Part shown: positions 42,713 to 53,735 of the stretch, one piece after another
How the letters are laid out: each line of letters starts with the position of its first letter
How positions within the stretch are numbered: position 1 is the first letter of the stretch
Source: Chloroflexota bacterium
Lineage (GTDB): Bacteria > Chloroflexota > Dehalococcoidia > Dehalococcoidales > UBA5760
Length of the DNA: 63,290 nt
Direction: 5' to 3'
Assembly (NCBI GenBank): GCA_015222205.1
Contig: JADFUW010000027.1
Span: forward strand, 1-63,290
The notes under the pieces: generated by a model
What the model saw: the letters and a program-made list of their open reading frames with translations, nothing else
Database searches by the model: none
What the model was told of the DNA's origin: nothing
Translations under genes and position numbers: made by a program

Positions 42713-43195
42713 ATGAAAATGTCAGCTAGGCCGGGTATAGAAGAGTATTTTTTGAAGATAGCCTCGGTAGTTGCCGAACGCTCAACCTGTCGCCGGCATC
42801 ATGTTGGTGCTGTGGCGGTGAGGGATAAACACATACTGGCCACAGGCTATAATGGGGCTGCTTCTGGTCTTAAGGACTGCCTTGAGCTTGGCTGCCTCAG
42901 GGACGAGATGAATATACCGTCGGGGACACGGCACGAAATATGTCGGGGTATTCATGCCGAGCAGAATGTAATCATACAGGCTGGTCTGCATGGTGTCAGC
43001 CTTGAGGGGAGCACTATTTACTGCACCCATACGCCGTGCGTGCTGTGTGCCAAGATGCTGGTAAATGCCAGGATAAAACGGTATGTTAGTTTTGGTCGGT
43101 ATAACGATAAAGGGTTTATCAGCCTATTTAAGGAAGCCGGCATAGAGGTTGACATAAAGAAAAAGCCGCCATCCCGGATAAGCTATCTAGATTAG
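42713..43195 (+). CDS. dCMP deaminase (ComEB family)
   Basis: RSTC.R..VGA, TGYNG, HAEQN and PCVLC motifs. Confidence 0.93.
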   Translation: MKMSARPGIEEYFLKIASVVAERSTCRRHHVGAVAVRDKHILATGYNGAASGLKDCLELGCLRDEMNIPSGTRHEICRGIHAEQNVIIQAGLHGVSLEGSTIYCTHTPCVLCAKMLVNARIKRYVSFGRYNDKGFISLFKEAGIEVDIKKKPPSRISYLD

Positions 43196-44085
43196 TGTTC
43201 TGGTGGTGGCTTCTGTAGCGTGTCTATGAGTTTATACATATCTTCGTAAGCGCTACTAAAATCAGGATTAACCTTATTAAATTTGTCTTTCAGTACCCTC
43301 ATTTTCTGGGCGAATTCCGGTTGGTCTTTGCTTTCGACTAAGTCGGCCCAGGTTCTTACTTTTTCCTGGAACGACCTTTCGATTTCTGCCAGTTTCGGTA
43401 GATTTGTCTGTAAGGAGGCATAAAGTTCAGGGTCTTCAGTAATAACACTTTCTGTCAGGGTTACCAGCAGTTTGAAGGTGACACCACTGACTACGTCCAT
43501 CTGTTTTAACCTGTCAAAGCTAAGCAGGGTATCGGCGGAGACTATAGCAATGAAGTGGGATAGCCCCAGAACGACGGCCATGGTTTCATCGTGTTCGTTG
43601 GGACTCATTAAGATAGCTCTAGCCCCTCTGGTTTCTAGGTACTTCTTGACTCTTTGGGCTAAGGCTGTCTCTGTGTCATTAGTTGGTGTTAGGACAAAGC
43701 TTCGGTTAGCAATATCTTTAGCCCCGGGACCAAATAGGGGGTGTGCGCCAAGCACTACCCCTGCTTTTATATGTTTGTGCATGGCTGCTACGGGGGATGC
43801 TTTGATGGAGGTAATGTCTATGATGACCTGCTCAGGGCGGGTGTAAGGTCCAATCTGCTCTACAACCGCCTCAAAATTATCTATTGGTACTGATATTAAG
43901 ATAACCTGGGCATTCTCAACCGCTTCTATATTATCAGTGGTGGCTGTAATTCCTAGTCGCCGCTTGGCCTCCAGCAACTTGCCTTCGTTTCTACCGGTGA
44001 TTATTACCTCACGACCCTCTTTCAGTAGAAAACGGGTAAGCCAGCGCCCCATATTTCCTGAGCCACCAATTATTGCTACTCTCAC
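43192..44085 (-). CDS. tyrA: Prephenate dehydrogenase
   Basis: GGSGNMG, DITSIK, HPLFGP and HDETMA motifs. Confidence 0.93.
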   Translation of the reverse strand: MRVAIIGGSGNMGRWLTRFLLKEGREVIITGRNEGKLLEAKRRLGITATTDNIEAVENAQVILISVPIDNFEAVVEQIGPYTRPEQVIIDITSIKASPVAAMHKHIKAGVVLGAHPLFGPGAKDIANRSFVLTPTNDTETALAQRVKKYLETRGARAILMSPNEHDETMAVVLGLSHFIAIVSADTLLSFDRLKQMDVVSGVTFKLLVTLTESVITEDPELYASLQTNLPKLAEIERSFQEKVRTWADLVESKDQPEFAQKMRVLKDKFNKVNPDFSSAYEDMYKLIDTLQKPPPEH

Positions 44086-44105
44086 GATTACCTCATAGCT
44101 TTGCT

Positions 44106-45173
44106 TTATTTTGCCTTAGGATAAGAACCCAGGATTTTCAGAAAACGTGCCTTTGTTTCTAAACTGGCTAGAACATCTCGTGATACCTTATCTTCTCGGT
44201 GGCCTTCGAAGTCAAGGTAAAAGTTATAGTCCCAGGCCTTTTGCCTTGTTGGTCGGGATTCAATCTTGGTCAGGTTAATGTCTCTAGTAGCAAATTCTTT
44301 CAGGAAATCATAAAGTGCCCTTGGTTTATGTTTTACTGAGAAAACTATGGAGGTTTTGTCGTTCCCTGACGGTGGGCAGTCCTCCTTGGACAGAATAAAG
44401 AATCTGGTAAAATTATTCGGGTTATCTTCTATTTCACAGGTAATCGTCTTCATCTTATAGATTTCTGCCGCCCGGCTACTAGCAATGGCGCCGCCATCGG
44501 TCATCTGTTTTTCCTTTATCATCCTTACACTGCCGGCAGTATCGGTGGTAGGGATTAATTCACAGCCCAGGTGCTTTAAGAAGGTTTTGCATTGCCCCAG
44601 GGCTTGAGGGTGGGAATAAATCCTTTTGATAGCGTCCAGCCGCGTGGTGGGATTGGTTATCAGGCAGTGGGCGATTCGGAGTTCTATTTCACCACATACC
44701 TTAAGACTTGAGTCTAAAAGCAGGTCGTATGACTGGCCTACGGTACCCTCCAGTGAGTTCTCTACCGGTACGATGCCAAACTGGACATCATCTTGCTCTA
44801 CGACCTTGAAGACCTCTTCCAGGGTTTCCTGGGGCTTAGTTATTACTAGATGCCCAAAAAACTGAAGAGCCGCCCCTTCGCTATAGGCACCAAATTCTCC
44901 TTGAAAAGCAACCTCAGCACCCTGTGTCCTTCGGCACTCCCTCATTATTTGTTCGTAGATGCTCTCGATAGCTTCTTGTTCTATGTTTTCGTTCTGGGCA
45001 ATGCGTTTGATATGGTCTAAGACCCTTTTTTCCCTGGCGGTATCGTTAATTTGTTTGCCCTGTACCCGTTTCTCCTCACCGATTTCACTAGCAATCTTTA
45101 ACCGCTCACCGATTAGCCTAACAATCTCGGCATCGGTGACATCTATTTTCTTCCTTAAATCATCCAGGCTCAT
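44106..45173 (-). CDS. pheA: Chorismate mutase / prephenate dehydratase
   Basis: AroQ N-terminus, [19 protein letters not shown] and ACT domain IESRP. Confidence 0.96.
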
Positions 45174-46261
45174 TTTATCACCCTTAGAATTAGTCCCGCC
45201 CTCATGGCTAAATCACACAGGGTTATGGCTATCATTGATTCAACGACCACCACTGCCCGGGGTACAATGCAAATATCATGTCTTCCCTTGATGCTCAAGC
45301 TGGTATTCTCCATATCTTTGATATTCACCGTGGGCTGGTTTTTGGCTATAGATGGGGTTGGCTTAATAGCTACCCTGAGTATTATCGGCATGCCGTTACT
45401 TATGCCACCGAGAATGCCGCCGGAGTTGTTGGTTGTGGTGATTATCTTGCCATTTTTGAGGGCGAACGGGTCATTGTTCTCGGAGCCTTTTTTGCTGGCG
45501 GCGGAGAAACCGGAGCCGAACTCAACCCCCTTGACAGCGGGGATAGCCAAAAGGGCTTTAGCCAGCTCGCCATCCAGTGTATCAAATATTGGCTCTCCCA
45601 GACCAGCGGGTACATTAAGGGCTATACCTTCAATAATGCCACCGAGGCTATCCCCCTCCTTCTTAGCCTCCTCAATGGCTCTAGCCATCTCTTCGGCAGC
45701 CTCAGGGTCAGCGCAGTTTAACGAATTCTTACCCGTATTCTCTCTAATCTCGTCAAATTTCTCTGGTTTGGCGGTTATTCCCCCTATCTGGATAGTATGA
45801 GCCAGAACCTCAACACCAGCGAGGCCCAGGATTTTTCTGGCAATAGCCCCACCCATCACCAGAGTGGCGGTAATTCTTCCGGAGAATCTACCCCCGCCCC
45901 GGAAGTCGTTAAACCCCCCGTACTTCATAAAGGCGGTGTAGTCAGCCTGACCCGGCCTCGGCAGAAATCTATTTTTTTCATACTCGCTTGAGTCTATATC
46001 CTGGTTCCATACCATGAGGCAAATAGGGGCCCCGGTAGTGATACCGTTAAAGATGCCGGAAAGAATCTCTACCTTATCTGCCTCTGCCCTTGTGGTTACC
46101 GCTATACTTTTCCCTGGTCTTCTCCTATCTAGGTCTCTTTGGATATCCTCCTCAGTGATGGCTAGACCAGCAGGGCAGCCATCAATGATGGCACCCACAC
46201 ACCTACCGTGGCTTTCGCCAAAGCTGGTTATAGTAAAAAGCTTACCCAGACTATTCGCCAT
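45170..46261 (-). CDS. aroC: Chorismate synthase
   Basis: [25 protein letters not shown] and GRHD motifs. Confidence 0.97.
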
Positions 46262-47516
46262 CTACCTTCACCTCGCCGCCGATGCTTCTTAGTATCTTCC
46301 AGAAGTCGGGGAATGTCTTAGAGACACAGTCCGCTTGATTTATTACCGTTTCCCCGGTAGCCGTGCCCAGTACACCGAAAGCCATGGCAATCCGGTGGTC
46401 ATTTCTGGGGTCTATCACAGCCCCTCTCGGTCTTGAGCCGGTGATGAGCAGTCTATTTCTTTCCTCCTGGACCTTTATGCCCATTCTTTCCAAGCCTTCC
46501 CGTAAGGCTGAAACCCGGTTTGATTCCTTTATTCGGGCTCTATCTATCCCGGTAAACTCACTTGTGCCGTCGGCTACGGCCGCCAGAATAGCCACGGTCG
46601 GCAACAGGTCAATGTAGTCAGCCATATCAACCTTTATAGCCCTTAGTTCTGATTTTCTCACGGTTACCGCATTTTTGTCTATACTAACTTGCGCCCCCAT
46701 ATCTGTTAAGAAACTTAATATAATCTTATCACCCTGTAAGCTTTCTGGATTCAGGTTGTCTAGCTGCATCCACCCTGATAGCGCCCCTAGAGCCAAAAGA
46801 TATGAGGCTGAGGACCAGTCCCCCTCTACCAGGTACTTCGCCGGGGTATAGCTTTGTAGTGATATATTAAATTCCCTTAAATCCGGGGAGGTTTCTACCT
46901 TTATGCCGAACTTGCTAAGACAGTCTAGGGTCATCAGTATGAAGGGCTTTGACTCCGGTGGTGTCGTCAGTCTGATTTTAACCCCCAGCTCGGCTAGCGG
47001 GGACACGAGTAGTAGTGCCGAGACGAACTGGGAGCTTATGTTGCCGGCTAGCTCGGTTGTTCCGCCTTTCAATCTACCTCCGTGAACTATTACCGGGGCT
47101 ACCTCGCCCTGAGAGGAGCAATCTACCCCCAGTTGCCTCAGTGCCTCTAGCAATGGTTTGATTGGCCTCTGGGATAGGGAGGGGCCGGGGACTAATCGGC
47201 ATCTCCCGGGGACTTGCGAACAGATAGCCGTCATGAATCTCAAGGTGGCTGCCGAATCACCACAGAACAGGTCTATAGTTGGCTCACAGAAATTGCCTCC
47301 CAAGACCTTCCACGAATCCTCTTCCTGCTGGATATCTGCCCCGATCTTGCGTAACACATTCAGGGCAGCTTCGGTATCATCTGAGCTTAAAGGACGAACA
47401 ATTTCACTCTCGCCCTTAGCCAGGGCAGCACACATGAGTCCCCGAATGGTATAGCTCTTTGACGCCGGGGCAAAGGCCCTTCCCTCTATCTCGCTTTTAT
47501 TGATTAAGGCCTTCAT
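46251..47516 (-). CDS. aroA: EPSP synthase
   Basis: [21 protein letters not shown] and DHRIAMA motifs. Confidence 0.96.
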
Positions 47517-48027
47517 GCTCTTTTATCCTGGCTATTATCTGGTCGGCGGCAGAATCAATATCCAGCCTTGAAGTATCTATGGCGATGTCAGCGGCTCGCT
47601 GGTAAAATGGCTCACGAAATGTTAACAGTTCCTGGATAGCCTGGGCCGGGTTAGCCACTTTAAGGAGCGGCCTCTCTTCGGTATCGTTTGATGTCCGCTT
47701 TAGTATTACTTCCGGGGAGGTAGTGAGGTAGACTATTACGGCTTCTTTCTTTAGTCGGTCAATGTTTATTTTATTAAGGATTAACCCACCCCCACAGGCA
47801 ATCACGGCGTTTTTCTTTTGGCTAACCTCTTTAGTGACTTCAATCTCAAGCTCCCGAAAGGCTATCTCTCCGTCCTCTCGGAATACCTCGGGTATGGGCT
47901 TACCTGCCTTCTGCTCAATCAACGGGTCTAGCTCAATAAATTCCTTACCCAGTTTTCCAGCTAGGGCCCTCCCCACCACAGTTTTCCCCGTCCCCATGAA
48001 ACCAATTAGGGCGATGCTAGTTTTCAT
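47497..48027 (-). CDS. aroK: Shikimate kinase
   Basis: GFMGTGKT, GEIAFRELE, CGGG and RPLL motifs. Confidence 0.96.
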   Translation of the reverse strand: MKTSIALIGFMGTGKTVVGRALAGKLGKEFIELDPLIEQKAGKPIPEVFREDGEIAFRELEIEVTKEVSQKKNAVIACGGGLILNKINIDRLKKEAVIVYLTTSPEVILKRTSNDTEERPLLKVANPAQAIQELLTFREPFYQRAADIAIDTSRLDIDSAADQIIARIKEHEGLNQ

Positions 48028-48895
48028 TAGCCTCTAGTGCCTTAATGGCTTCCTTTTTCATCAGGTCAACGGGGGCTTTTTGTCCCGTCCACTTCTCAAA
48101 GGCCAAAGCCCCTTGCCAGACCAGCATATCAAGCCCGCCGATAGTTTTGGCACCAGCTGCCCCTGCCTCTCTCAGTAACCTCGTCTTTAGCGGGTTATAC
48201 ACGACATCAAAAACAACCAGGCTAGATTTTAGCAGTTTAGCTGGAACGAGGGTGTCATCAATATTCGGACTCATGCCGATACTGGTGGCATTAATCAGCA
48301 CATCGGCTCCTTCCAGTGCCGTTGCTAGATTTTCCTCATCCAGTTCTAGTGCGTTAACCTCTTTCTTAAAGGTATTAAAGATTTCCTGAGCTAGCTCCTC
48401 TGCCCAGTCTAATTCCAGTGGGCGGTTAAGGATAACCAGATTAGCCCCCCTATCAGCAAGAATAAAGGAAATCGCTCTTGAGACACCACCTGCCCCTAGG
48501 ATGACTATGTTTTTTCCCTCCGGCTCGACCCCCTTATCCCGTAGTGCTTGCAGGAATCCGGTGGCATCGGTATTATAGCCCCTTAAAACACCGTCGTCAC
48601 TCACTATGGTATTAACGGCACCTATCTTTTGGGCCAGGGGGTCTAGTTCATCCAGAAATGGAATGACTGCCACCTTGTGGGGTATAGTGACATTTAAGCC
48701 CCTTATATTCAGGGCTGTCATTCCATGAATTGCCTTACCCAGTTCTTCTTTTCTTACCCGGAAAGCAATATAAATATAATCTAACCCCAACTCTTTAAAG
48801 GCGGCATTATGCATCACCGGTGACATAGTGTGCTCTATAGGGTCACCGATTACACCACAGATTCGTGTTTTCCCCGATATAACCATATTTCTCAT
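48017..48895 (-). CDS. aroE: Shikimate dehydrogenase
   Basis: SPVMHN, NVTIPHK, GAVNT, NTD and GAGG motifs. Confidence 0.96.
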   Translation of the reverse strand: MRNMVISGKTRICGVIGDPIEHTMSPVMHNAAFKELGLDYIYIAFRVRKEELGKAIHGMTALNIRGLNVTIPHKVAVIPFLDELDPLAQKIGAVNTIVSDDGVLRGYNTDATGFLQALRDKGVEPEGKNIVILGAGGVSRAISFILADRGANLVILNRPLELDWAEELAQEIFNTFKKEVNALELDEENLATALEGADVLINATSIGMSPNIDDTLVPAKLLKSSLVVFDVVYNPLKTRLLREAGAAGAKTIGGLDMLVWQGALAFEKWTGQKAPVDLMKKEAIKALEANEN

Positions 48896-48923
48896 CCGTT
48901 TACCATACTATAGATTTTCTTTC

Positions 48924-49580
48924 TCATCCTGACATTATTTGGTATATTTTTGTCAGGTGGCTTACCGTTATTTGGCCGGGGGCAGATTCTTTACCCTCCC
49001 CGATGGAGGCATAGGTAAAATATCCCCCGACCAGGGGACAAAAAACCCGACTGGTAAAACCCAAGGGACCCATAGCAAACGAAACTATCTTTACCTCGGG
49101 AAACTCAGCGATGAGCTTGAGGGTGGTCAGGTTGTCCTTAAAGCTCTGTGCCGTGGTAATCACCTTGCATACATCGGCGCCAGCGGCTAGCTCTCTTTGA
49201 ACTATCTCCTTTAGCCTGTTAAGTGGAGGCGTTTTCTTAAGCTCATGAAGCGACACCAGGCACCTGGCTCGCCTCTTAATTAATGGGATAGCCGTCGCTA
49301 GATTTTTTGTTCTAAGCTCAATATCAACTATATTTGCCCCCAGCTCAACGGCCCTAATAAGCTCCTCTATTCTACCAGCTTCATCCCTTTGCCACCGTCC
49401 ACCCTCGTCTGACATTCTATTACAGGCTATCCAGGGTTTCCTAAGCTGCTTGGCTAAATTCGGCCACCCCCCGCCAATTAAGTCTATGCGAACCTCAAAT
49501 AGCTCTACGAGAGGCTCAACCTTTCTTATTGCTGATAGGTCATCTTTTATAATTGCAGCACAAATCCTCGGTTTTTTCAT
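48924..49580 (-). CDS. aroD: Type I 3-dehydroquinate dehydratase
   Basis: EVRID, GADVCK, FAMG..G..SR and SAPGQ motifs. Confidence 0.94.
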   Translation of the reverse strand: MKKPRICAAIIKDDLSAIRKVEPLVELFEVRIDLIGGGWPNLAKQLRKPWIACNRMSDEGGRWQRDEAGRIEELIRAVELGANIVDIELRTKNLATAIPLIKRRARCLVSLHELKKTPPLNRLKEIVQRELAAGADVCKVITTAQSFKDNLTTLKLIAEFPEVKIVSFAMGPLGFTSRVFCPLVGGYFTYASIGEGKESAPGQITVSHLTKIYQIMSG

Positions 49581-49595
49581 TCTAGTTCCAGCTTT

Positions 49596-50669
49596 TTAAT
49601 CTAATAAAACCTGCTCTATTAAAGATAGGTTTACTTCGTCGGTGATAAATACCTTGCCTAGGACTTCGGGTAAGATGAACCTTATCTTACCCATTAAAAC
49701 CTTCTTGTCGTGTTGCATCGCCGAAATTAGTTCTTCTACTTTAAGCTCTGGGAGTTTGGTTGGCAAGCCAGCCTGCTTAATAAGGCTTTCTAGTCTGAGT
49801 AATTCATTTTCACTGAGTATTCCCATCTTGTTTGAAATTCTGGCGGCGGCTATCATCCCAATAGCTACTGCCTCACCGTGTCCTACTCTGAAGTCTGAGG
49901 CTGATTCAATGGCATGTCCCACCGTATGACCGTAGTTTAAAATAGCTCTTAGATTTAAGTCCTTCTCATCCTTAGCCACTACTTCAGCTTTAATTTCAGC
50001 TGACCGGAAGATAATCTCCTCAAGTGCCTCCTCATTGAGTGATTTTATTCTGTCAATGTTTTTCTCAAGATAGGTAAGGAATCCTTTATCCCAGATAACC
50101 CCGTATTTTATCACCTCGGCTAAACCGTCACTGAGTGTTTTGTTATCAAGTGTTTTTAGGGTATCAATATCAGTAATTACTAGCCTTGGTTGATAAAATG
50201 CCCCGATTTTGTTTTTCAGCTGACCGTGGTCTACGGCCACCTTACCCCCGATACTGCTATCAACCTGTGCCAGCAGGGTAGTTGGTATCTGTATTAGTGG
50301 TACCCCTCGTAGGTACGTAGCCGCTACGAATCCAGCTAAGTCGCCGATAACACCACCGCCTAAGGCTAGAATAGGTGTTGTCCTTTCTGCATGGCAATTG
50401 GCTAATTCATGGTATAGCCTGCCGGCGGTCTCCAGTGATTTTTGCTCCTCCCCGTCGGGAACCTGTAGGGTAGTTACCGTGAAGCCCTCTGGAGTCAGGC
50501 TTTGCTCTAGAGCCTCGCCATACAGACCTTTCACGACAGGGTTGGTGATAATCACCACCTTGTCAACAAAGCCGGCTTTCTTTAGTTTACGGCCGGTTTG
50601 GGAAAGTATTCCGGAATCTATATGGGCCTCGTAGCTGTTACTGCCTAGTTTTATCTTAACTTTCTTCAT
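49596..50669 (-). CDS. aroB: 3-dehydroquinate synthase
   Basis: GGGVIGD, PTTLLAQVDSSIGGK and LNYGHT motifs. Confidence 0.97.
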   Translation of the reverse strand: MKKVKIKLGSNSYEAHIDSGILSQTGRKLKKAGFVDKVVIITNPVVKGLYGEALEQSLTPEGFTVTTLQVPDGEEQKSLETAGRLYHELANCHAERTTPILALGGGVIGDLAGFVAATYLRGVPLIQIPTTLLAQVDSSIGGKVAVDHGQLKNKIGAFYQPRLVITDIDTLKTLDNKTLSDGLAEVIKYGVIWDKGFLTYLEKNIDRIKSLNEEALEEIIFRSAEIKAEVVAKDEKDLNLRAILNYGHTVGHAIESASDFRVGHGEAVAIGMIAAARISNKMGILSENELLRLESLIKQAGLPTKLPELKVEELISAMQHDKKVLMGKIRFILPEVLGKVFITDEVNLSLIEQVLLD

Positions 50670-51726
50670 TTTTTCTTGGCTTAGTTAGTTTGTGGATTTC
50701 TCGGCAGGTATTGATGACTTCTTTAAGTTCATCAGGGGTGATTGCCTGTTGGGCATCAACTAGAGCCTCTGCCGGATTGTAGTGCATCTCAATCATGAGT
50801 CCGCTGGCTCCGGCGGCGATAGCGGCGCAGCACATATTAAAGATGAGGTCCCGACGTCCCGAGGCATGACTGGGGTCAACAATTACCGGCAGATAGGTTT
50901 CTTTCTGAATCACGGGAACGGCAGATAGGTCTAGGGTATATCGGGTGTAGTTTTTACCTTTACCTATGGGTAGTATGCCTCTTTCACAGAGAATAATGTC
51001 TTTATTACCCTCGGCGGCGATATATTCAGCAAAAGACAGGAATTCTTCAATACCGGCACCGAAATGGCGTTTAAATAAAATGGGCTTCTTTGTCCTGGCT
51101 ATCTTGGTTAGCAGGTCCTGATTATACATGTTTCTAGACCCTATTTGGAGTATGTCGGCATACTCAGCGGCTAGGTCGACCTGTGTTTCCCCTCTTACTT
51201 CAGTCACCGTGGCTAGATTAAACCTTTCTCCAGCTTCACGTAGCCAGGCTAAAGCCTCTCTGGCTTCTTCCCAGCCTATGGAGCCCAGGCCCTGGAAAGA
51301 GTGAACTGAGCTCCTTGGTTTAAAGATGCCCCCCCTTAGAATATGAGCTCCGGCCTTCTTGGCCTCTTCGGCAATTCTTAGTAGTTGTCTGTGGCTCTCC
51401 ACGGCACAGGGTCCGGCAATGAATACGGGTTCGCTGCCACCTATCTCAATGTCACCCACCTTGATTATTGAGTGTTCCATTTCATCTTCAAGGAATTTAC
51501 TGTATTCCTTGCTGATTAGTTTATAGGGGACTTCAACCATTGTTGCCTCCTTCACCCCGGGGAAAGTGGCAAAGTGTTCGAATGGCGCTTTATTCTCATC
51601 GCCAACTAAGCCGATTATGGTTCGGTATTTCCCCTTGGAGACATCGGCTCTCAATCCGTATTTCTTTATTTCTTTCACTACCTGGGTTACTTGTTCTGGC
51701 GTTGCGTCAGTTTTCATTATAATCAT
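50656..51726 (-). CDS. aroF: DAHP synthase type I-beta with N-terminal regulatory domain
   Basis: IAGPCAVE, FKPRSS..SFQG, QIGSRNM, CERGI and DPSH motifs. Confidence 0.94.
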   Translation of the reverse strand: MIIMKTDATPEQVTQVVKEIKKYGLRADVSKGKYRTIIGLVGDENKAPFEHFATFPGVKEATMVEVPYKLISKEYSKFLEDEMEHSIIKVGDIEIGGSEPVFIAGPCAVESHRQLLRIAEEAKKAGAHILRGGIFKPRSSVHSFQGLGSIGWEEAREALAWLREAGERFNLATVTEVRGETQVDLAAEYADILQIGSRNMYNQDLLTKIARTKKPILFKRHFGAGIEEFLSFAEYIAAEGNKDIILCERGILPIGKGKNYTRYTLDLSAVPVIQKETYLPVIVDPSHASGRRDLIFNMCCAAIAAGASGLMIEMHYNPAEALVDAQQAITPDELKEVINTCREIHKLTKPRKNEES

Positions 51727-51797
51727 TTATCCCCCTCCCAAAAATTTTATACAGATTAGGTAACCTCTTATTGGATGAAGTCCTTGTTGTTGTGCCC

Positions 51798-51831
51798 AAA
51801 ATAGAAGAACCCCCCTTGCTTGGGAGGGTTC
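51798..51831 (-). terminator. Attenuator terminator of the aromatic operon
   Basis: mRNA GAACCCUCC-CAAGCAA-GGGGGGUUC followed by UUCUAUUUU. Confidence 0.8.
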
Positions 51832-51873
51832 CTGAATTTCTATAGTCTACTTTTACTGTCTTATGATATTTTC

Positions 51874-51963
51874 TTAAACGCTGTCCCCCCAAGCGCACCT
51901 TGTGCGCCAGCTAAACGCGAAATAAGTATAATACACTCCCTGGAGGGCAGCATAGCTTAGCAT
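51874..51963 (-). CDS. Aromatic amino acid attenuation leader peptide MLSYAALQGVYYTYFAFSWRTRCAWGDSV
   Basis: GAGGT SD; 8 of 29 residues aromatic, with a YYTYFAFSW cluster; overlaps the antiterminator segment. Confidence 0.85.
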   Translation of the reverse strand: MLSYAALQGVYYTYFAFSWRTRCAWGDSV

Positions 51964-51993
51964 AATAATACTTACCTCATTTCCTTCTAGCTT

Positions 51994-52022
51994 AGCCTAT
52001 CACAAGGGATATGGTTTGTCAA
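51994..52022 (-). promoter_or_regulatory. Sigma70 promoter of leader and aro operon
   Basis: Minus-strand TTGACA-17-TAGGCT. Confidence 0.7.
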
Positions 52023-52093
52023 GCAAGCCTGCATTACTAAGGTTTTATCTAGTAAGCCTGGCCGCTTTTATTGCTCTAGGGGGGAGATGGTGC

Positions 52094-52142
52094 TTGACGG
52101 TGGTGAAAATTTGCTGTAGAGTAATATCGTATTGCAATATCG
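52094..52142 (+). promoter_or_regulatory. Promoter and candidate PadR operator
   Basis: TTGACG-17-TAGAGT, then AATATCG-tattgc-AATATCG (direct and partly inverted repeat). Confidence 0.5.
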
Positions 52143-52154
52143 GGGAGCGTTATT

Positions 52155-52460
52155 ATGGTGGACAGGGAGTTTTTCCTGGGATTTATTAAGATTCACATCC
52201 TATATCACGCTTCCAAGGAGCCAATCTTTGGCGTGGAAATAGCCAAGGAGCTGGCAAGACACGGCTATAATGTCAGCCCGGGCACCCTGTATCCGGTGCT
52301 GCACCGCCTGGAAAAAGAGGGCTATCTGGAGAGCAGCCCCAGGTTAGTTAATGGCAGAGTAAGGAAATACTACCAGGCTACTGGCGAGGGAAAGAGGGCA
52401 CTGGTGCAGTCGAGAAAGAAAATCAGGGAACTGGTGACTGAGGTCTTATATGATAGATAG
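52155..52460 (+). CDS. PadR family transcriptional regulator
   Basis: SPGTLYPVLHRLEKEG and RKYYQAT motifs. Confidence 0.93.
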   Translation: MVDREFFLGFIKIHILYHASKEPIFGVEIAKELARHGYNVSPGTLYPVLHRLEKEGYLESSPRLVNGRVRKYYQATGEGKRALVQSRKKIRELVTEVLYDR

Positions 52461-52499
52461 TTGGAAAAGCTATTAATTGAGGTTTTACAGGGTAAGTAG

Positions 52500-53735
52500 T
52501 TGGCAGAGCTATTAAATAATAAAGATGTGCCCCGCAGGGAAATCTGGGGATTTCATCCCAATGTATTCTTTCTGGGTATCGTCAGCTTCTTGACTGATGT
52601 CTCCAGCGAGATGATTTTTACCCTTGTCCCCCTTTTCTTGTCTAATGTGCTGGGGGTGGGGACTGCTATCATAGGCCTTGTTGGGGGATTGTCGGAAAGC
52701 ACTGATGCCCTATTTCGGATATTTAGTGGTTGGCTTAGTGACAAGATAGGCAAGCGCAAGTCCCTAGCCGTGGCTGGCTACACTATTTCTACGATTGCCA
52801 AGCCCTTTATGTATCTGGCTTCAACGTGGGGTATGGTCTTAGGTGTCAGATTTGGTGACCGGGTGGGTAAGGGCATCCGCAGTTCATCACGAGATGCCCT
52901 GATTGCTGATTCTACCCCACCTGCAGAGAGAGGCAAAAGCTTTGGGTTTCATCGGGCGATGGATACCTCCGGTGCTGTTTTGGGGTTGGCTATAGCGGCT
53001 GCTGTTATCTATCTTGTTCAGGGTGGAGGGCTAGAGCTTAGCCTGAGGACTTACCGGTGGTTGGTACTAATAGGTGTTGTGCCAGCCGTGCTGGCAGTGG
53101 CAATACTGGTAAGATTTGTTAAGGAGAGGGAAAGGAAGCCATCGCTAACTGGCCCTTCTCGCCCCGGGTTTAATCTGGTCAAACTAGCCGCTGGTTTTGA
53201 CACCCGCTTTAAGCTATTTCTGGTGGTTATGGTGTTATTTACCCTGGGTAACTCCAGCGATTTTTTCGTTATACTGCGGGCGCAGGATATGGGCTCATCT
53301 GTTTTCCATATCACGCTGATGCTTGTCCTGTTTAACGCTACCTATGCGGCGGTTTCTTTGCCGGCAGGCAGATTATCAGACCGACTGGGCAGGAGACGTG
53401 TTATCGCTATGGGCTGGGGTATTTATGCCCTGGTTTACCTTGGGTTTGCCCTGACCTCTGAGCTCTGGCAGGTGTGGCTGCTCTTTGCCGGCTACGGCAT
53501 TTATTATGGTATAGTTGAGGGGGTAGCCAGGGCTTTTGTTGCCGACCTGGTGCCTGCGGAGAGAAGAGGCACTGCTTATGGACTGTATCACGGGGTGGTT
53601 GGTCTTACTCTTTTACCTGCCAGCCTGATTGCCGGCTGGATGTGGCAGACTTATAGCCCTCAAGCCCCGTTTTTCTTTGGCGCTGGCCTGGCGGCTCTGG
53701 CAACAATAGGCATGATGGCTTTTATCAGAGAATAA
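52500..53735 (+). CDS. MFS transporter
   Basis: DVSSEM, GWLSDKIGKRK, RDALIADS, FHRAMD and LSDRLGRRR motifs; about 12 TMs. Confidence 0.93.
   Translation: MAELLNNKDVPRREIWGFHPNVFFLGIVSFLTDVSSEMIFTLVPLFLSNVLGVGTAIIGLVGGLSESTDALFRIFSGWLSDKIGKRKSLAVAGYTISTIAKPFMYLASTWGMVLGVRFGDRVGKGIRSSSRDALIADSTPPAERGKSFGFHRAMDTSGAVLGLAIAAAVIYLVQGGGLELSLRTYRWLVLIGVVPAVLAVAILVRFVKERERKPSLTGPSRPGFNLVKLAAGFDTRFKLFLVVMVLFTLGNSSDFFVILRAQDMGSSVFHITLMLVLFNATYAAVSLPAGRLSDRLGRRRVIAMGWGIYALVYLGFALTSELWQVWLLFAGYGIYYGIVEGVARAFVADLVPAERRGTAYGLYHGVVGLTLLPASLIAGWMWQTYSPQAPFFFGAGLAALATIGMMAFIRE

Follow-up and report, generated by a model that had tools for sequence, protein, structure and literature searches.

A probable Tyr- and Phe-sensing leader-peptide attenuator ahead of the aroF-tyrA operon in Dehalococcoidales, and a scaffold shared with other operons of the order

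The region upstream of aroF in a 63,290-nucleotide (nt) stretch of DNA from a Chloroflexota bacterium of the order Dehalococcoidales (assembly GCA_015222205.1, contig JADFUW010000027.1; the window is this whole stretch) is very probably a ribosome-mediated transcription attenuator of the trpL/pheL type, which senses tyrosine and phenylalanine and controls the nine-gene operon from aroF to tyrA. The anatomy of the leader, its conservation in relatives, the co-variation of its RNA segments, and the match between leader codons and downstream genes carry this reading. All leader features lie on the minus strand, where an earlier note on this DNA had placed them, and the three RNA segments that it had described were recovered exactly where it had put them. 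The 29-codon upstream open reading frame (uORF) encodes precisely the peptide given there, MLSYAALQGVYYTYFAFSWRTRCAWGDSV, and only its start had to be corrected by one base. The elements of the leader are the following:

51994..52022, minus strand: promoter read from the sequence, with a -35 box TTGACA (52022-52017), a 17-nt spacer, and an extended -10 box TGaTAGGCT (52002-51994).
51974..51978, minus strand: Shine-Dalgarno-like site GAGGT, 10 nt 5' of the leader ATG, the distance from its core GAGG being 11 nt.
51874..51963, minus strand: leader ORF of 29 codons plus TAA, with the ATG at 51963-51961 and the TAA at 51876-51874; the uORF is conserved in relatives.
51941..51951, minus strand: segment 1, GCTGCCCTCCA, the C-rich anti-antiterminator strand (codons 5-8), which pairs with segment 2 in the minimum-energy fold.
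51913..51933, minus strand: regulatory codon run Y11 Y12 T13 Y14 F15 A16 F17.
51892..51908, minus strand: small G+C-rich hairpin GGCGCAC-AAG-GTGCGCT, the 3' arm of which shares 3 nt with segment 2.
51880..51894, minus strand: segment 2, GCTTGGGGGGACAGC, partner of segment 1 or of segment 3 (antiterminator).
51818..51828, minus strand: segment 3, CCCTCCCAAGC, which belongs to the 5' arm and loop of the terminator and is complementary to segment 2.
51798..51833, minus strand: intrinsic terminator found by a terminator scan, with an 11-pair stem (51833-51805), a 7-nt loop, and the tail CTATTTT.

The leader contains Tyr at codons 4, 11, 12, and 14, Phe at codons 15 and 17, and Trp at codons 19 and 25, and a 40-nt spacer separates its stop codon from the terminator. 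The minimum-energy fold of 51780-52000 (-63.1 kcal/mol) comprises the pairing of segments 1 and 2, the small hairpin between them, and the terminator; its z value is -2.2, and 5 of 200 shuffled sequences folded equally well. In the alternative antiterminator, segment 2 (51894-51884) pairs with segment 3 (51828-51818). Both pairings had been proposed in the earlier note, including the overlap of the second with the terminator's 5' arm and loop, and they were found at those places. Segments 1 and 3 (51941-51951 and 51822-51828) resemble the anti-Shine-Dalgarno motif CCCUCC, and segments 2 and 4 (51884-51890 and 51811-51816), as well as the ribosome site of aroF (51731-51739), resemble a Shine-Dalgarno sequence GGGGGG.

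These elements suggest the following series of events. Transcription would start about 25 nt ahead of the leader ATG, and the 29 leader codons would be translated while the RNA polymerase approaches the terminator. The small hairpin, which lies directly 3' of the last Phe codon, may pause the polymerase and so give the ribosome time to catch up. If charged tRNA-Tyr or tRNA-Phe runs short, the ribosome would stall in the Y11-Y12-T-Y14-F15-A-F17 run, where it would cover or separate segment 1 together with the hairpin's 5' arm and leave segment 2 free. The free segment 2, GCUUGGGGGG, could then pair with segment 3, CCCUCCCAAGC, as soon as the latter has been made, so that no terminator stem would form and the operon would be transcribed; a ribosome stalled on the Phe codons would in addition melt the small hairpin and thereby lengthen the antiterminator. 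With plentiful Tyr and Phe, the ribosome would proceed to codons 22-30, including the stop, and cover segment 2, the terminator would form, and transcripts would end near 51800. Without translation, segment 1 could hold segment 2.

The leader has been conserved in relatives. A BLASTN search with it found matches in 14 of 41 related genomes, including 8 of 14 in the same genus, and six relatives from the same genus have a leader with the pattern (W)YY(Y/T).F.F ahead of aroF (examples of their uORFs are MLNTALHKLCYYTRFSFTWRIRCAGGVQH, MIYTTPQNWYYYFAFRGA, and MLNSGIPRSWYYYFVFRSA). The aromatic run has been kept in the same-genus leaders, while other parts of the peptide and the position of the stop codon vary. 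The promoter pattern TTGACA-N17-TGnTAGGnT is also present 5' of the leaders in the six relatives; a consensus promoter scan did not list the promoter in the window because its -10 hexamer matches at only three of six positions. The sequence AGGTGA precedes the leader ATG of relatives by 10-12 nt.

A broader sample was taken from 80 aroF loci of named Dehalococcoidia assemblies, 76 of which had at least 300 nt of upstream sequence and were used, while four were dropped. The earlier note had suggested looking for aromatic-rich uORFs upstream of aroF in related genomes, and a uORF with at least five aromatic residues per eight was found in 70 of the 76 upstream regions (36 with seven and 11 with eight), compared to 64 of 3000 random 420-nt chunks of the host genome (2.1%) and 17 of 1520 shuffled upstream regions (1.1%). 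The background frequencies in the host genome are 2.9% for Tyr, 3.3% for Phe, and 1.0% for Trp. Judged by this comparison with relatives, chance can be taken as excluded as the origin of the leader. The subsequent analyses comprise 75 leaders, since one locus (L089) did not pass the uORF filter; it nonetheless carries the RNA scaffold. For the 75 leaders a script located the terminator, the best partner of its 5' arm as segment 2, and the best upstream partner of segment 2 as segment 1. A terminator was present in all 75. The distance from the end of the aromatic run to segment 2 was 7-25 nt, mostly 11-19 nt (7 nt in one leader), and the stop codon was situated inside or after segment 2 in 73 leaders and 6-9 nt ahead of it in the other two. 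A start codon, a frame open through the run, and a stop codon at or after segment 2 have been kept in 75 of the 76 aroF leaders. Divergent subfamilies have leaders of the CCGGGAGC and GCCTGGGGG types, and more distant aroF homologs are preceded by aromatic leaders with other segment sequences. The closest aroF homologs in named records all belong to metagenome-assembled Dehalococcoidia, Dehalococcoidales, or Chloroflexota.

The alternative pairings are also supported by co-variation. A MAFFT alignment of 76 leaders (A1) was not used for pair counts; because in it divergent subfamilies had their terminators offset by 1-2 columns, alignment-free tests and a model-based alignment were used. The terminator sequence AAGC occurs together with GCTT in segment 2 in 25 leaders and AGAC together with GTCT in two, while AGGC is accompanied by GCCT in 11 leaders and by GCTT in two more, in which G-U pairs keep the helix. 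The segment 2 variant TTGAG (with A) was found exclusively together with the terminator variant CCCTCTC (with T), in six of six cases. Duplexes of segment 2 and the terminator arm had a mean energy of -20.8 kcal/mol when both strands came from the same leader versus -17.0 kcal/mol when they were swapped between leaders, and in 64 of 75 cases the cognate partner outperformed the row mean.

The model-based alignment was made with a covariance model (R1), which had been built from 12 aroF leaders and six leaders of a second class (alignment A2) and the structure of which consists of the small hairpin and the terminator. It contains 102 model matches with 99 distinct sequences. In the latter, the antiterminator, which lies outside the structure of the model, was 92.3% paired, compared to 46-66% when the strands were slid against one another; five of its ten pairs had changed on both sides, and none of 500 shuffles reached the observed pairing or co-variation score. 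The hairpin and terminator were 92.4% paired, with changes on both sides in 14 of 17 pairs, in an alignment fitted to this very structure. For the small hairpin, 95.8% of the cells were paired in the distinct sequences and five of six pairs had changed on both sides. One terminator column (U or C) forms 36 GU, 31 AU, and 17 GC combinations with segment 2 (G or A), and the same column forms 52 UA, 28 CG, and 19 UG combinations with the 3' arm of the terminator (A or G). Such dual pairing would be expected of a strand that takes part in two alternative helices. The trpL/pheL logic proposed in the earlier note is borne out on the features accessible to computation, as the short ORF and its Shine-Dalgarno-like site are conserved, the codon run and the geometry of the stop codon fit, and the antiterminator co-varies.

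The effect of ribosome position was modeled by masking 28 nt around each A-site codon and folding the transcript only up to the terminator loop, so that the 3' arm had not yet been made. Masking along the full leader with the whole terminator present had been uninformative (the terminator probability was 0.82 everywhere), and therefore the transcript was truncated before this arm. For the leader of the window, the antiterminator probability came to about 0.9 when the A site was placed at codons 2-13, Y11 and Y12 among them, and to 0 from codon 22 to the stop. Over the 75 leaders, an antiterminator probability above 0.5 was obtained for 62 with the ribosome at the first aromatic codon and for 13 with the ribosome at the stop codon; the latter number was 0 when pairing across the ribosome was forbidden.

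Twenty public sequencing runs contain part of the stretch. Four were examined, three of which are metatranscriptome libraries with three study codes but the same year and habitat, perhaps from one campaign. Metatranscriptome contigs of relatives with 95-99% identity span aroF and the terminator as well as the leader, as far as 51925, 51936, and 51967, and one of them, a 1006-nt contig (50920-51925), bridges the terminator. A DNA contig extends to 52132, and none of the RNA-library contigs extends beyond 51967. In the runs examined, 51968-52150 had no RNA-library contig cover, but missing cover proves nothing, and contigs cannot show a start. As a weak hint, the pattern fits a transcription start near 51985 together with read-through transcripts. 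On the other side, neither ends nor strand nor level can be read from the contigs, and DNA may be present in RNA libraries. In comparison to the stretch, no differences of the RNA-library contigs are listed inside the uORF, and many are listed in aroF. The minus-strand G at 51813 is an A in those relatives, which turns a U-G pair of the terminator into a U-A pair, as in most family members, and leaves segment 3 untouched.

Several further observations weigh against the attenuator reading. When pairing across the ribosome was allowed, the antiterminator probability in the leader of the window was 0.13 at Y14, 0.01 at F17, and 0.23 at W19, and it was 0.58 at F15. The low values at Y14, F17, and W19 stem from pairing of segments 1 and 2 across the masked ribosome, a pairing that is sterically doubtful. 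Similarly, with the ribosome at the last aromatic codon the antiterminator exceeded 0.5 in just 43 of 75 leaders, and in 71 when cross-ribosome pairing was forbidden. The anti-antiterminator was not dominant at equilibrium without a ribosome, as segment 2 of this leader was 55% paired upstream and 42% in the antiterminator, and over the family the antiterminator exceeded 0.5 without a ribosome in 40 of 75 leaders. The terminator always prevailed in the equilibrium fold once it was present in full; therefore, the switch must be kinetic, as in trpL. The swap test was weaker for segment 1 (-18.8 versus -16.0 kcal/mol, the cognate partner being better than the swapped mean in 54 of 75 leaders), and this segment co-varies in part of the family, e.g., CTCTCA with TTGAGAGG; its pairing with segment 2 is weak in part of the family. 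The U tract of the terminator is interrupted (UUCUUCUAUUUU), the Shine-Dalgarno-like site is rather distant from the ATG, and many relatives have more Tyr and Phe codons than the mere four and two of this leader. Last, leader translation, stalling, termination, Tyr/Phe-responsive read-through, and pausing at the hairpin are steps that we infer.

One could argue that the uORF and the terminator are real, but that no amino acid is sensed, i.e., that the terminator is a constitutive partial stop and the uORF acts on translation or mRNA stability through coupling or re-initiation. That leader translation and regulated termination are predictions speaks for this explanation. [quoted passage not shown] However, the extreme enrichment of Tyr and Phe codons, which matches the product of the pathway, has no role in a non-sensing model, and a constitutive terminator would not be expected to have a co-varying antiterminator. 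Furthermore, the leader stop lies 148 nt 5' of the aroF start, with the terminator between them, and therefore coupling or re-initiation is unlikely. We consider this explanation very improbable.

The strongest argument for sensing by the ribosome comes from the distribution of the scaffold. Of 151 genomes sampled from the order, 130 have a match to the R1 model, many with two to four matches each, and single-contig genomes of the order also bear the scaffold. Outside of the order the model matches 4 of 143 genomes of the class, all weakly; this limits the scaffold, not the principle of attenuation. The scaffold consists of the leader codons, the small hairpin, CUUGGGGGG, and the CCCUCCCAAGC terminator, and the shared core is TTYnnnTTTACCGGGCGCAC..GGTGCGCTTGGGGGG. 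From about 206 matches, 121 were examined in a non-random selection (the best 27 new ones, all 14 further matches from five multi-copy genomes, and the next 80 in the list), which leaves about 85 that were weaker or unlisted. The genes downstream of these 121 matches encode a FadD11-like acyl-coenzyme A (CoA) ligase (48), aroF (46), a family III CoA-transferase (7), a HisC-like aminotransferase (5), pheS (3), aroB (2), a metallo-beta-lactamase-fold protein (2), an octopine-dehydrogenase-like protein (2), another acyl-CoA ligase (2), ilvB (2), a synthase for 3-deoxy-D-arabino-heptulosonate 7-phosphate (DAHP) without regulatory domain (1), and a molybdopterin oxidoreductase (1; a weak match with a doubtful leader).

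The codons of the leaders differ with these genes. Counted over 16 codons ending just after Phe-x-Phe, the 46 aroF leaders contain on average 4.0 Tyr and 2.0 Phe codons, and the five hisC-like leaders 4.4 Tyr and 2.2 Phe codons. The 48 leaders of the main acyl-CoA ligase/ATP-binding cassette (ABC) operon have means of 0.6 Tyr and 2.6 Phe codons (e.g., ...TTKFVFT...), and the three pheS leaders have means of 0.7 Tyr and 3.7 Phe codons (e.g., ...FKVNFIF...). The second ligase type (2) is preceded by 7.5 Tyr codons and no Phe codon on average (e.g., YAYYYYYY), and the two ilvB leaders have runs of Val, Ile, and Leu codons (e.g., VNVVVLVL). The RNA core is thus constant while the codons vary with the downstream gene, which points to ribosome stalling and not to a ligand or protein that binds the core. 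Taken as a comparison of sequences, the match between codons and genes on one scaffold argues strongly for sensing by the ribosome.

These data also bear on an explanation in which the conserved core, i.e., the small hairpin and CUUGGGGGG, is itself recognized by a riboswitch ligand, by a TRAP- or PyrR-like protein, or by a tRNA as in a T-box, while the uORF is incidental. The core is unusually conserved at the nucleotide level and common to families of the order and to operons of different function, and the small hairpin co-varies and is therefore a real structure. However, a common ligand or protein cannot give specificity when the same core precedes aroF, pheS, hisC-like genes, ligase operons, and ilvB and it is the codon content that varies instead. 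Moreover, the start codon, the open frame, and the stop position have been kept as described above, the first Phe codon is synonymously variable (TTC or TTT), and the middle codon is free. In a scan of 51000-53000 with Rfam (E <=10) no family reached its threshold, and the only matches were a chance one to RT-7 and a sub-threshold one to Phe_leader (RF01859; E 4.6), the latter in the terminator part; with 19.2 bits versus a gathering threshold of 55, membership in this family was rejected. A T-box (RF00230) was rejected as well, since there was no match at E <=10 in the same region. T-boxes were detected normally upstream of trpE in three relatives (G003, G017, and G023, at loci L101, L105, and L107), with 98.8-107 bits versus a gathering threshold of 93; this positive control indicates that a T-box would have shown here. 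Scans at the gathering threshold of the second copy described below (L016), of a pheS leader (L172), and of an ilvB leader (L202) returned nothing. Taken together, recognition of the core in place of the codons is extremely improbable.

Attenuation by ribosome stalling on Tyr and Phe codons leaves the question of Trp. The earlier note had proposed that the leader integrates Tyr, Phe, and possibly Trp, the last through W19; Tyr and Phe are clear, whereas Trp sensing by W19 is doubtful in this copy because its codon supplies the xGG with which the small hairpin begins, and in relatives this codon stands for W, G, E, or R. Several observations nevertheless speak for an attenuator that responds to all three aromatic amino acids and in which W19 serves as a working Trp sensor. 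Trp is present in the aromatic cluster of 60 of 75 aroF leaders, in 57 of them exactly once, at a background frequency of 1.0%; in 38 leaders it is an internal or the first residue of the cluster, and it adjoins the run in all six same-genus leaders. The cluster totals over the 75 leaders are 296 Tyr, 160 Phe, and 63 Trp. The Trp branch also needs chorismate, the product of the operon, and a ribosome with W19 in its A site would end 2 nt before segment 2. On the other hand, Trp is solely the last cluster residue in 22 leaders, in which TGG doubles as the first pairs of the hairpin, and W19 is of this kind; it opens the 5' arm of the hairpin, is replaced by GGG, GAG, or AGG in relatives, and may be kept for pairing. 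The masking model gave the low antiterminator value at W19 reported above, and in three relatives a separate T-box upstream of trpE serves the Trp branch. The trpE and trpA families were searched for in the host assembly and not found, but with 89.8% completeness absence is not shown; incompleteness is the likelier reason, because a chorismate-binding enzyme is present in 13 of 14 same-genus genomes. On balance, a working Trp sensor in this copy is possible but doubtful. W25 is a simpler case, and the structural role that had been suggested for it is supported: its UGG lies inside segment 2, the frame ends before it in four same-genus leaders, and a ribosome at codon 25 would cover segment 2.

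A second copy of the scaffold is present in the host genome outside the stretch, on another contig (C6; L016:2902-3078, plus strand), and a profile search of the host genome with nhmmer found only these two. Its leader contains Phe as the only regulatory residue; behind the uORF M(GM)STANERQWETTKFVFTRRTQVRLGRSDIHI come the same hairpin, segment 2, and terminator. Downstream of this copy are the genes for a 644-aa FadD11-like ligase, two Liv-type permeases, a solute-binding protein, and an ABC ATPase, an arrangement that recurs in 48 of the 121 matches examined in the order, and just 5' of the copy lie genes for the beta subunit of an indolepyruvate oxidoreductase, a pyridoxal phosphate-dependent aminotransferase, and a PaaI-like thioesterase. 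Porat et al. (cited in a passage of PMC4162585) reported a route of aryl acid salvage via indolepyruvate oxidoreductase in Methanococcus maripaludis. As a hypothesis, induction of the second copy by Phe starvation would fit Phe uptake or aryl acid salvage via the indolepyruvate oxidoreductase. It is a possibility, somewhat short of an even chance, that one attenuator scaffold has been copied before many operons and re-coded for each amino acid, so that it forms an attenuator regulon in which the codons annotate unknown genes, perhaps for aryl acid salvage. If this is true, the ligase/ABC genes, the CoA-transferase genes (with Phe or Tyr leaders), and the Tyr-only ligase genes would be turned on by Phe or Tyr starvation, and they may provide uptake and, by analogy with M. 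maripaludis, a salvage route from aryl acids to Phe and Tyr.

The operon that follows the leader of the window is given here:

43192..51726, minus strand: aroF-aroB-aroD-aroE-aroK-aroA-aroC-pheA-tyrA (Pfam assignments), the operon predicted to be controlled.

The nine genes overlap or are separated by gaps of at most 28 nt, and from this spacing we infer that the leader controls all of them. Terminator-like sites inside the operon show no excess (nine versus 11.1 expected). The aroF start at 51726 is preceded by a strong ribosome site, GGGAGGGGG. The gene (50656-51726, minus strand) encodes a DAHP synthase with an N-terminal ferredoxin-like regulatory domain (PF18152), and pheA encodes a chorismate mutase-prephenate dehydratase-ACT protein (Pfam). 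The ferredoxin-like domain mediates feedback inhibition by Tyr and Phe in the Thermotoga enzyme; if it has this role here, the same amino acids would control the pathway at the level of the enzyme and of the transcript. Directly upstream of the aro promoter, in divergent orientation (52155-53735, plus strand), genes for a PadR-family regulator (101 aa) and a transporter of the major facilitator superfamily (411 aa) are located, and at least one relative from the same genus (L007) has a PadR-like gene at the corresponding position. The host assembly has 0.94 Mb in 32 contigs, the stretch being contig C21.

The closest described system is the aroR-aroF leader of C. glutamicum, and the likeness is a functional one, by analogy. 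According to a passage in PMC4046766, a leader peptide with Phe-Tyr-Phe lies directly upstream of aroF in this species and has been interpreted as an attenuator (citing Neshat et al. 2014), and a passage in PMC7356990 describes the removal of the aroR leader to relieve aroF from control by Phe and Tyr (citing Neshat et al. 2014). As far as these passages describe it, both systems have a short ORF with aromatic codons directly ahead of a DAHP synthase gene. In contrast to C. glutamicum, an actinomycetote in which aroF is controlled, the leader described here belongs to a chloroflexotan and precedes nine genes, through pheA and tyrA; compared to those descriptions, its run is longer and dominated by Tyr (up to seven Tyr in relatives), and the family often has one Trp. 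In addition, the scaffold is reused before many other operons.

In Escherichia coli, the leaders of pheL-pheA and pheM-pheST contain Phe codons and form alternative 1:2, 2:3, and 3:4 pairings. As with pheM-pheST, the scaffold of this order is also present before pheS with Phe-only leaders. Unlike pheL and pheM, the leader described here combines Tyr and Phe, and the regulated unit is the common pathway with both branches. In trpL, the archetype of this mechanism, stalling of the ribosome frees segment 2 for the antiterminator, a ribosome that has reached the stop codon masks it, and the switch is kinetic. The distances and the masking models show that the present leader fits this geometry. The regulatory codons of trpL lie within segment 1, whereas here they lie between segments 1 and 2 and are followed by an additional small hairpin that overlaps segment 2; the Rfam scan of 51000-53000 revealed no sequence similarity to trpL. 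T-boxes are likewise terminator/antiterminator switches that respond to tRNA charging, and in the same lineage they serve the Trp branch; in contrast to the leader-peptide attenuator proposed here, they sense uncharged tRNA directly and without translation. In the literature, supplements aside, we found no description of attenuation in Dehalococcoidia or Chloroflexi, so that the earlier note was right to call such a system unfamiliar in this phylum; a survey by Lopatovskaya et al. 2010 (cited in PMC4833913) might bear on this point.

The mechanism itself is ordinary, and therefore the value of the finding lies elsewhere, in annotation, in a re-targeted scaffold, and in the prediction of gene roles. 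It provides a well-supported regulatory annotation for the aromatic pathway in Dehalococcoidia, which are mostly uncultured and have small genomes and few known regulators. One scaffold with different codons before different operons represents a natural experiment on the duplication and re-targeting of attenuators, and the leader codons may predict the roles of adjacent genes, namely, those of the ligase/ABC operon, the CoA-transferase, and the metallo-beta-lactamase-fold and octopine-dehydrogenase-like proteins. The lineage would possess two sensors of tRNA charging, ribosome stalling for the common pathway and the Phe and Tyr branches, and the T-box for the Trp branch. As the scaffold is also present in single-contig genomes, the prediction should be testable in culture, if these are isolates.

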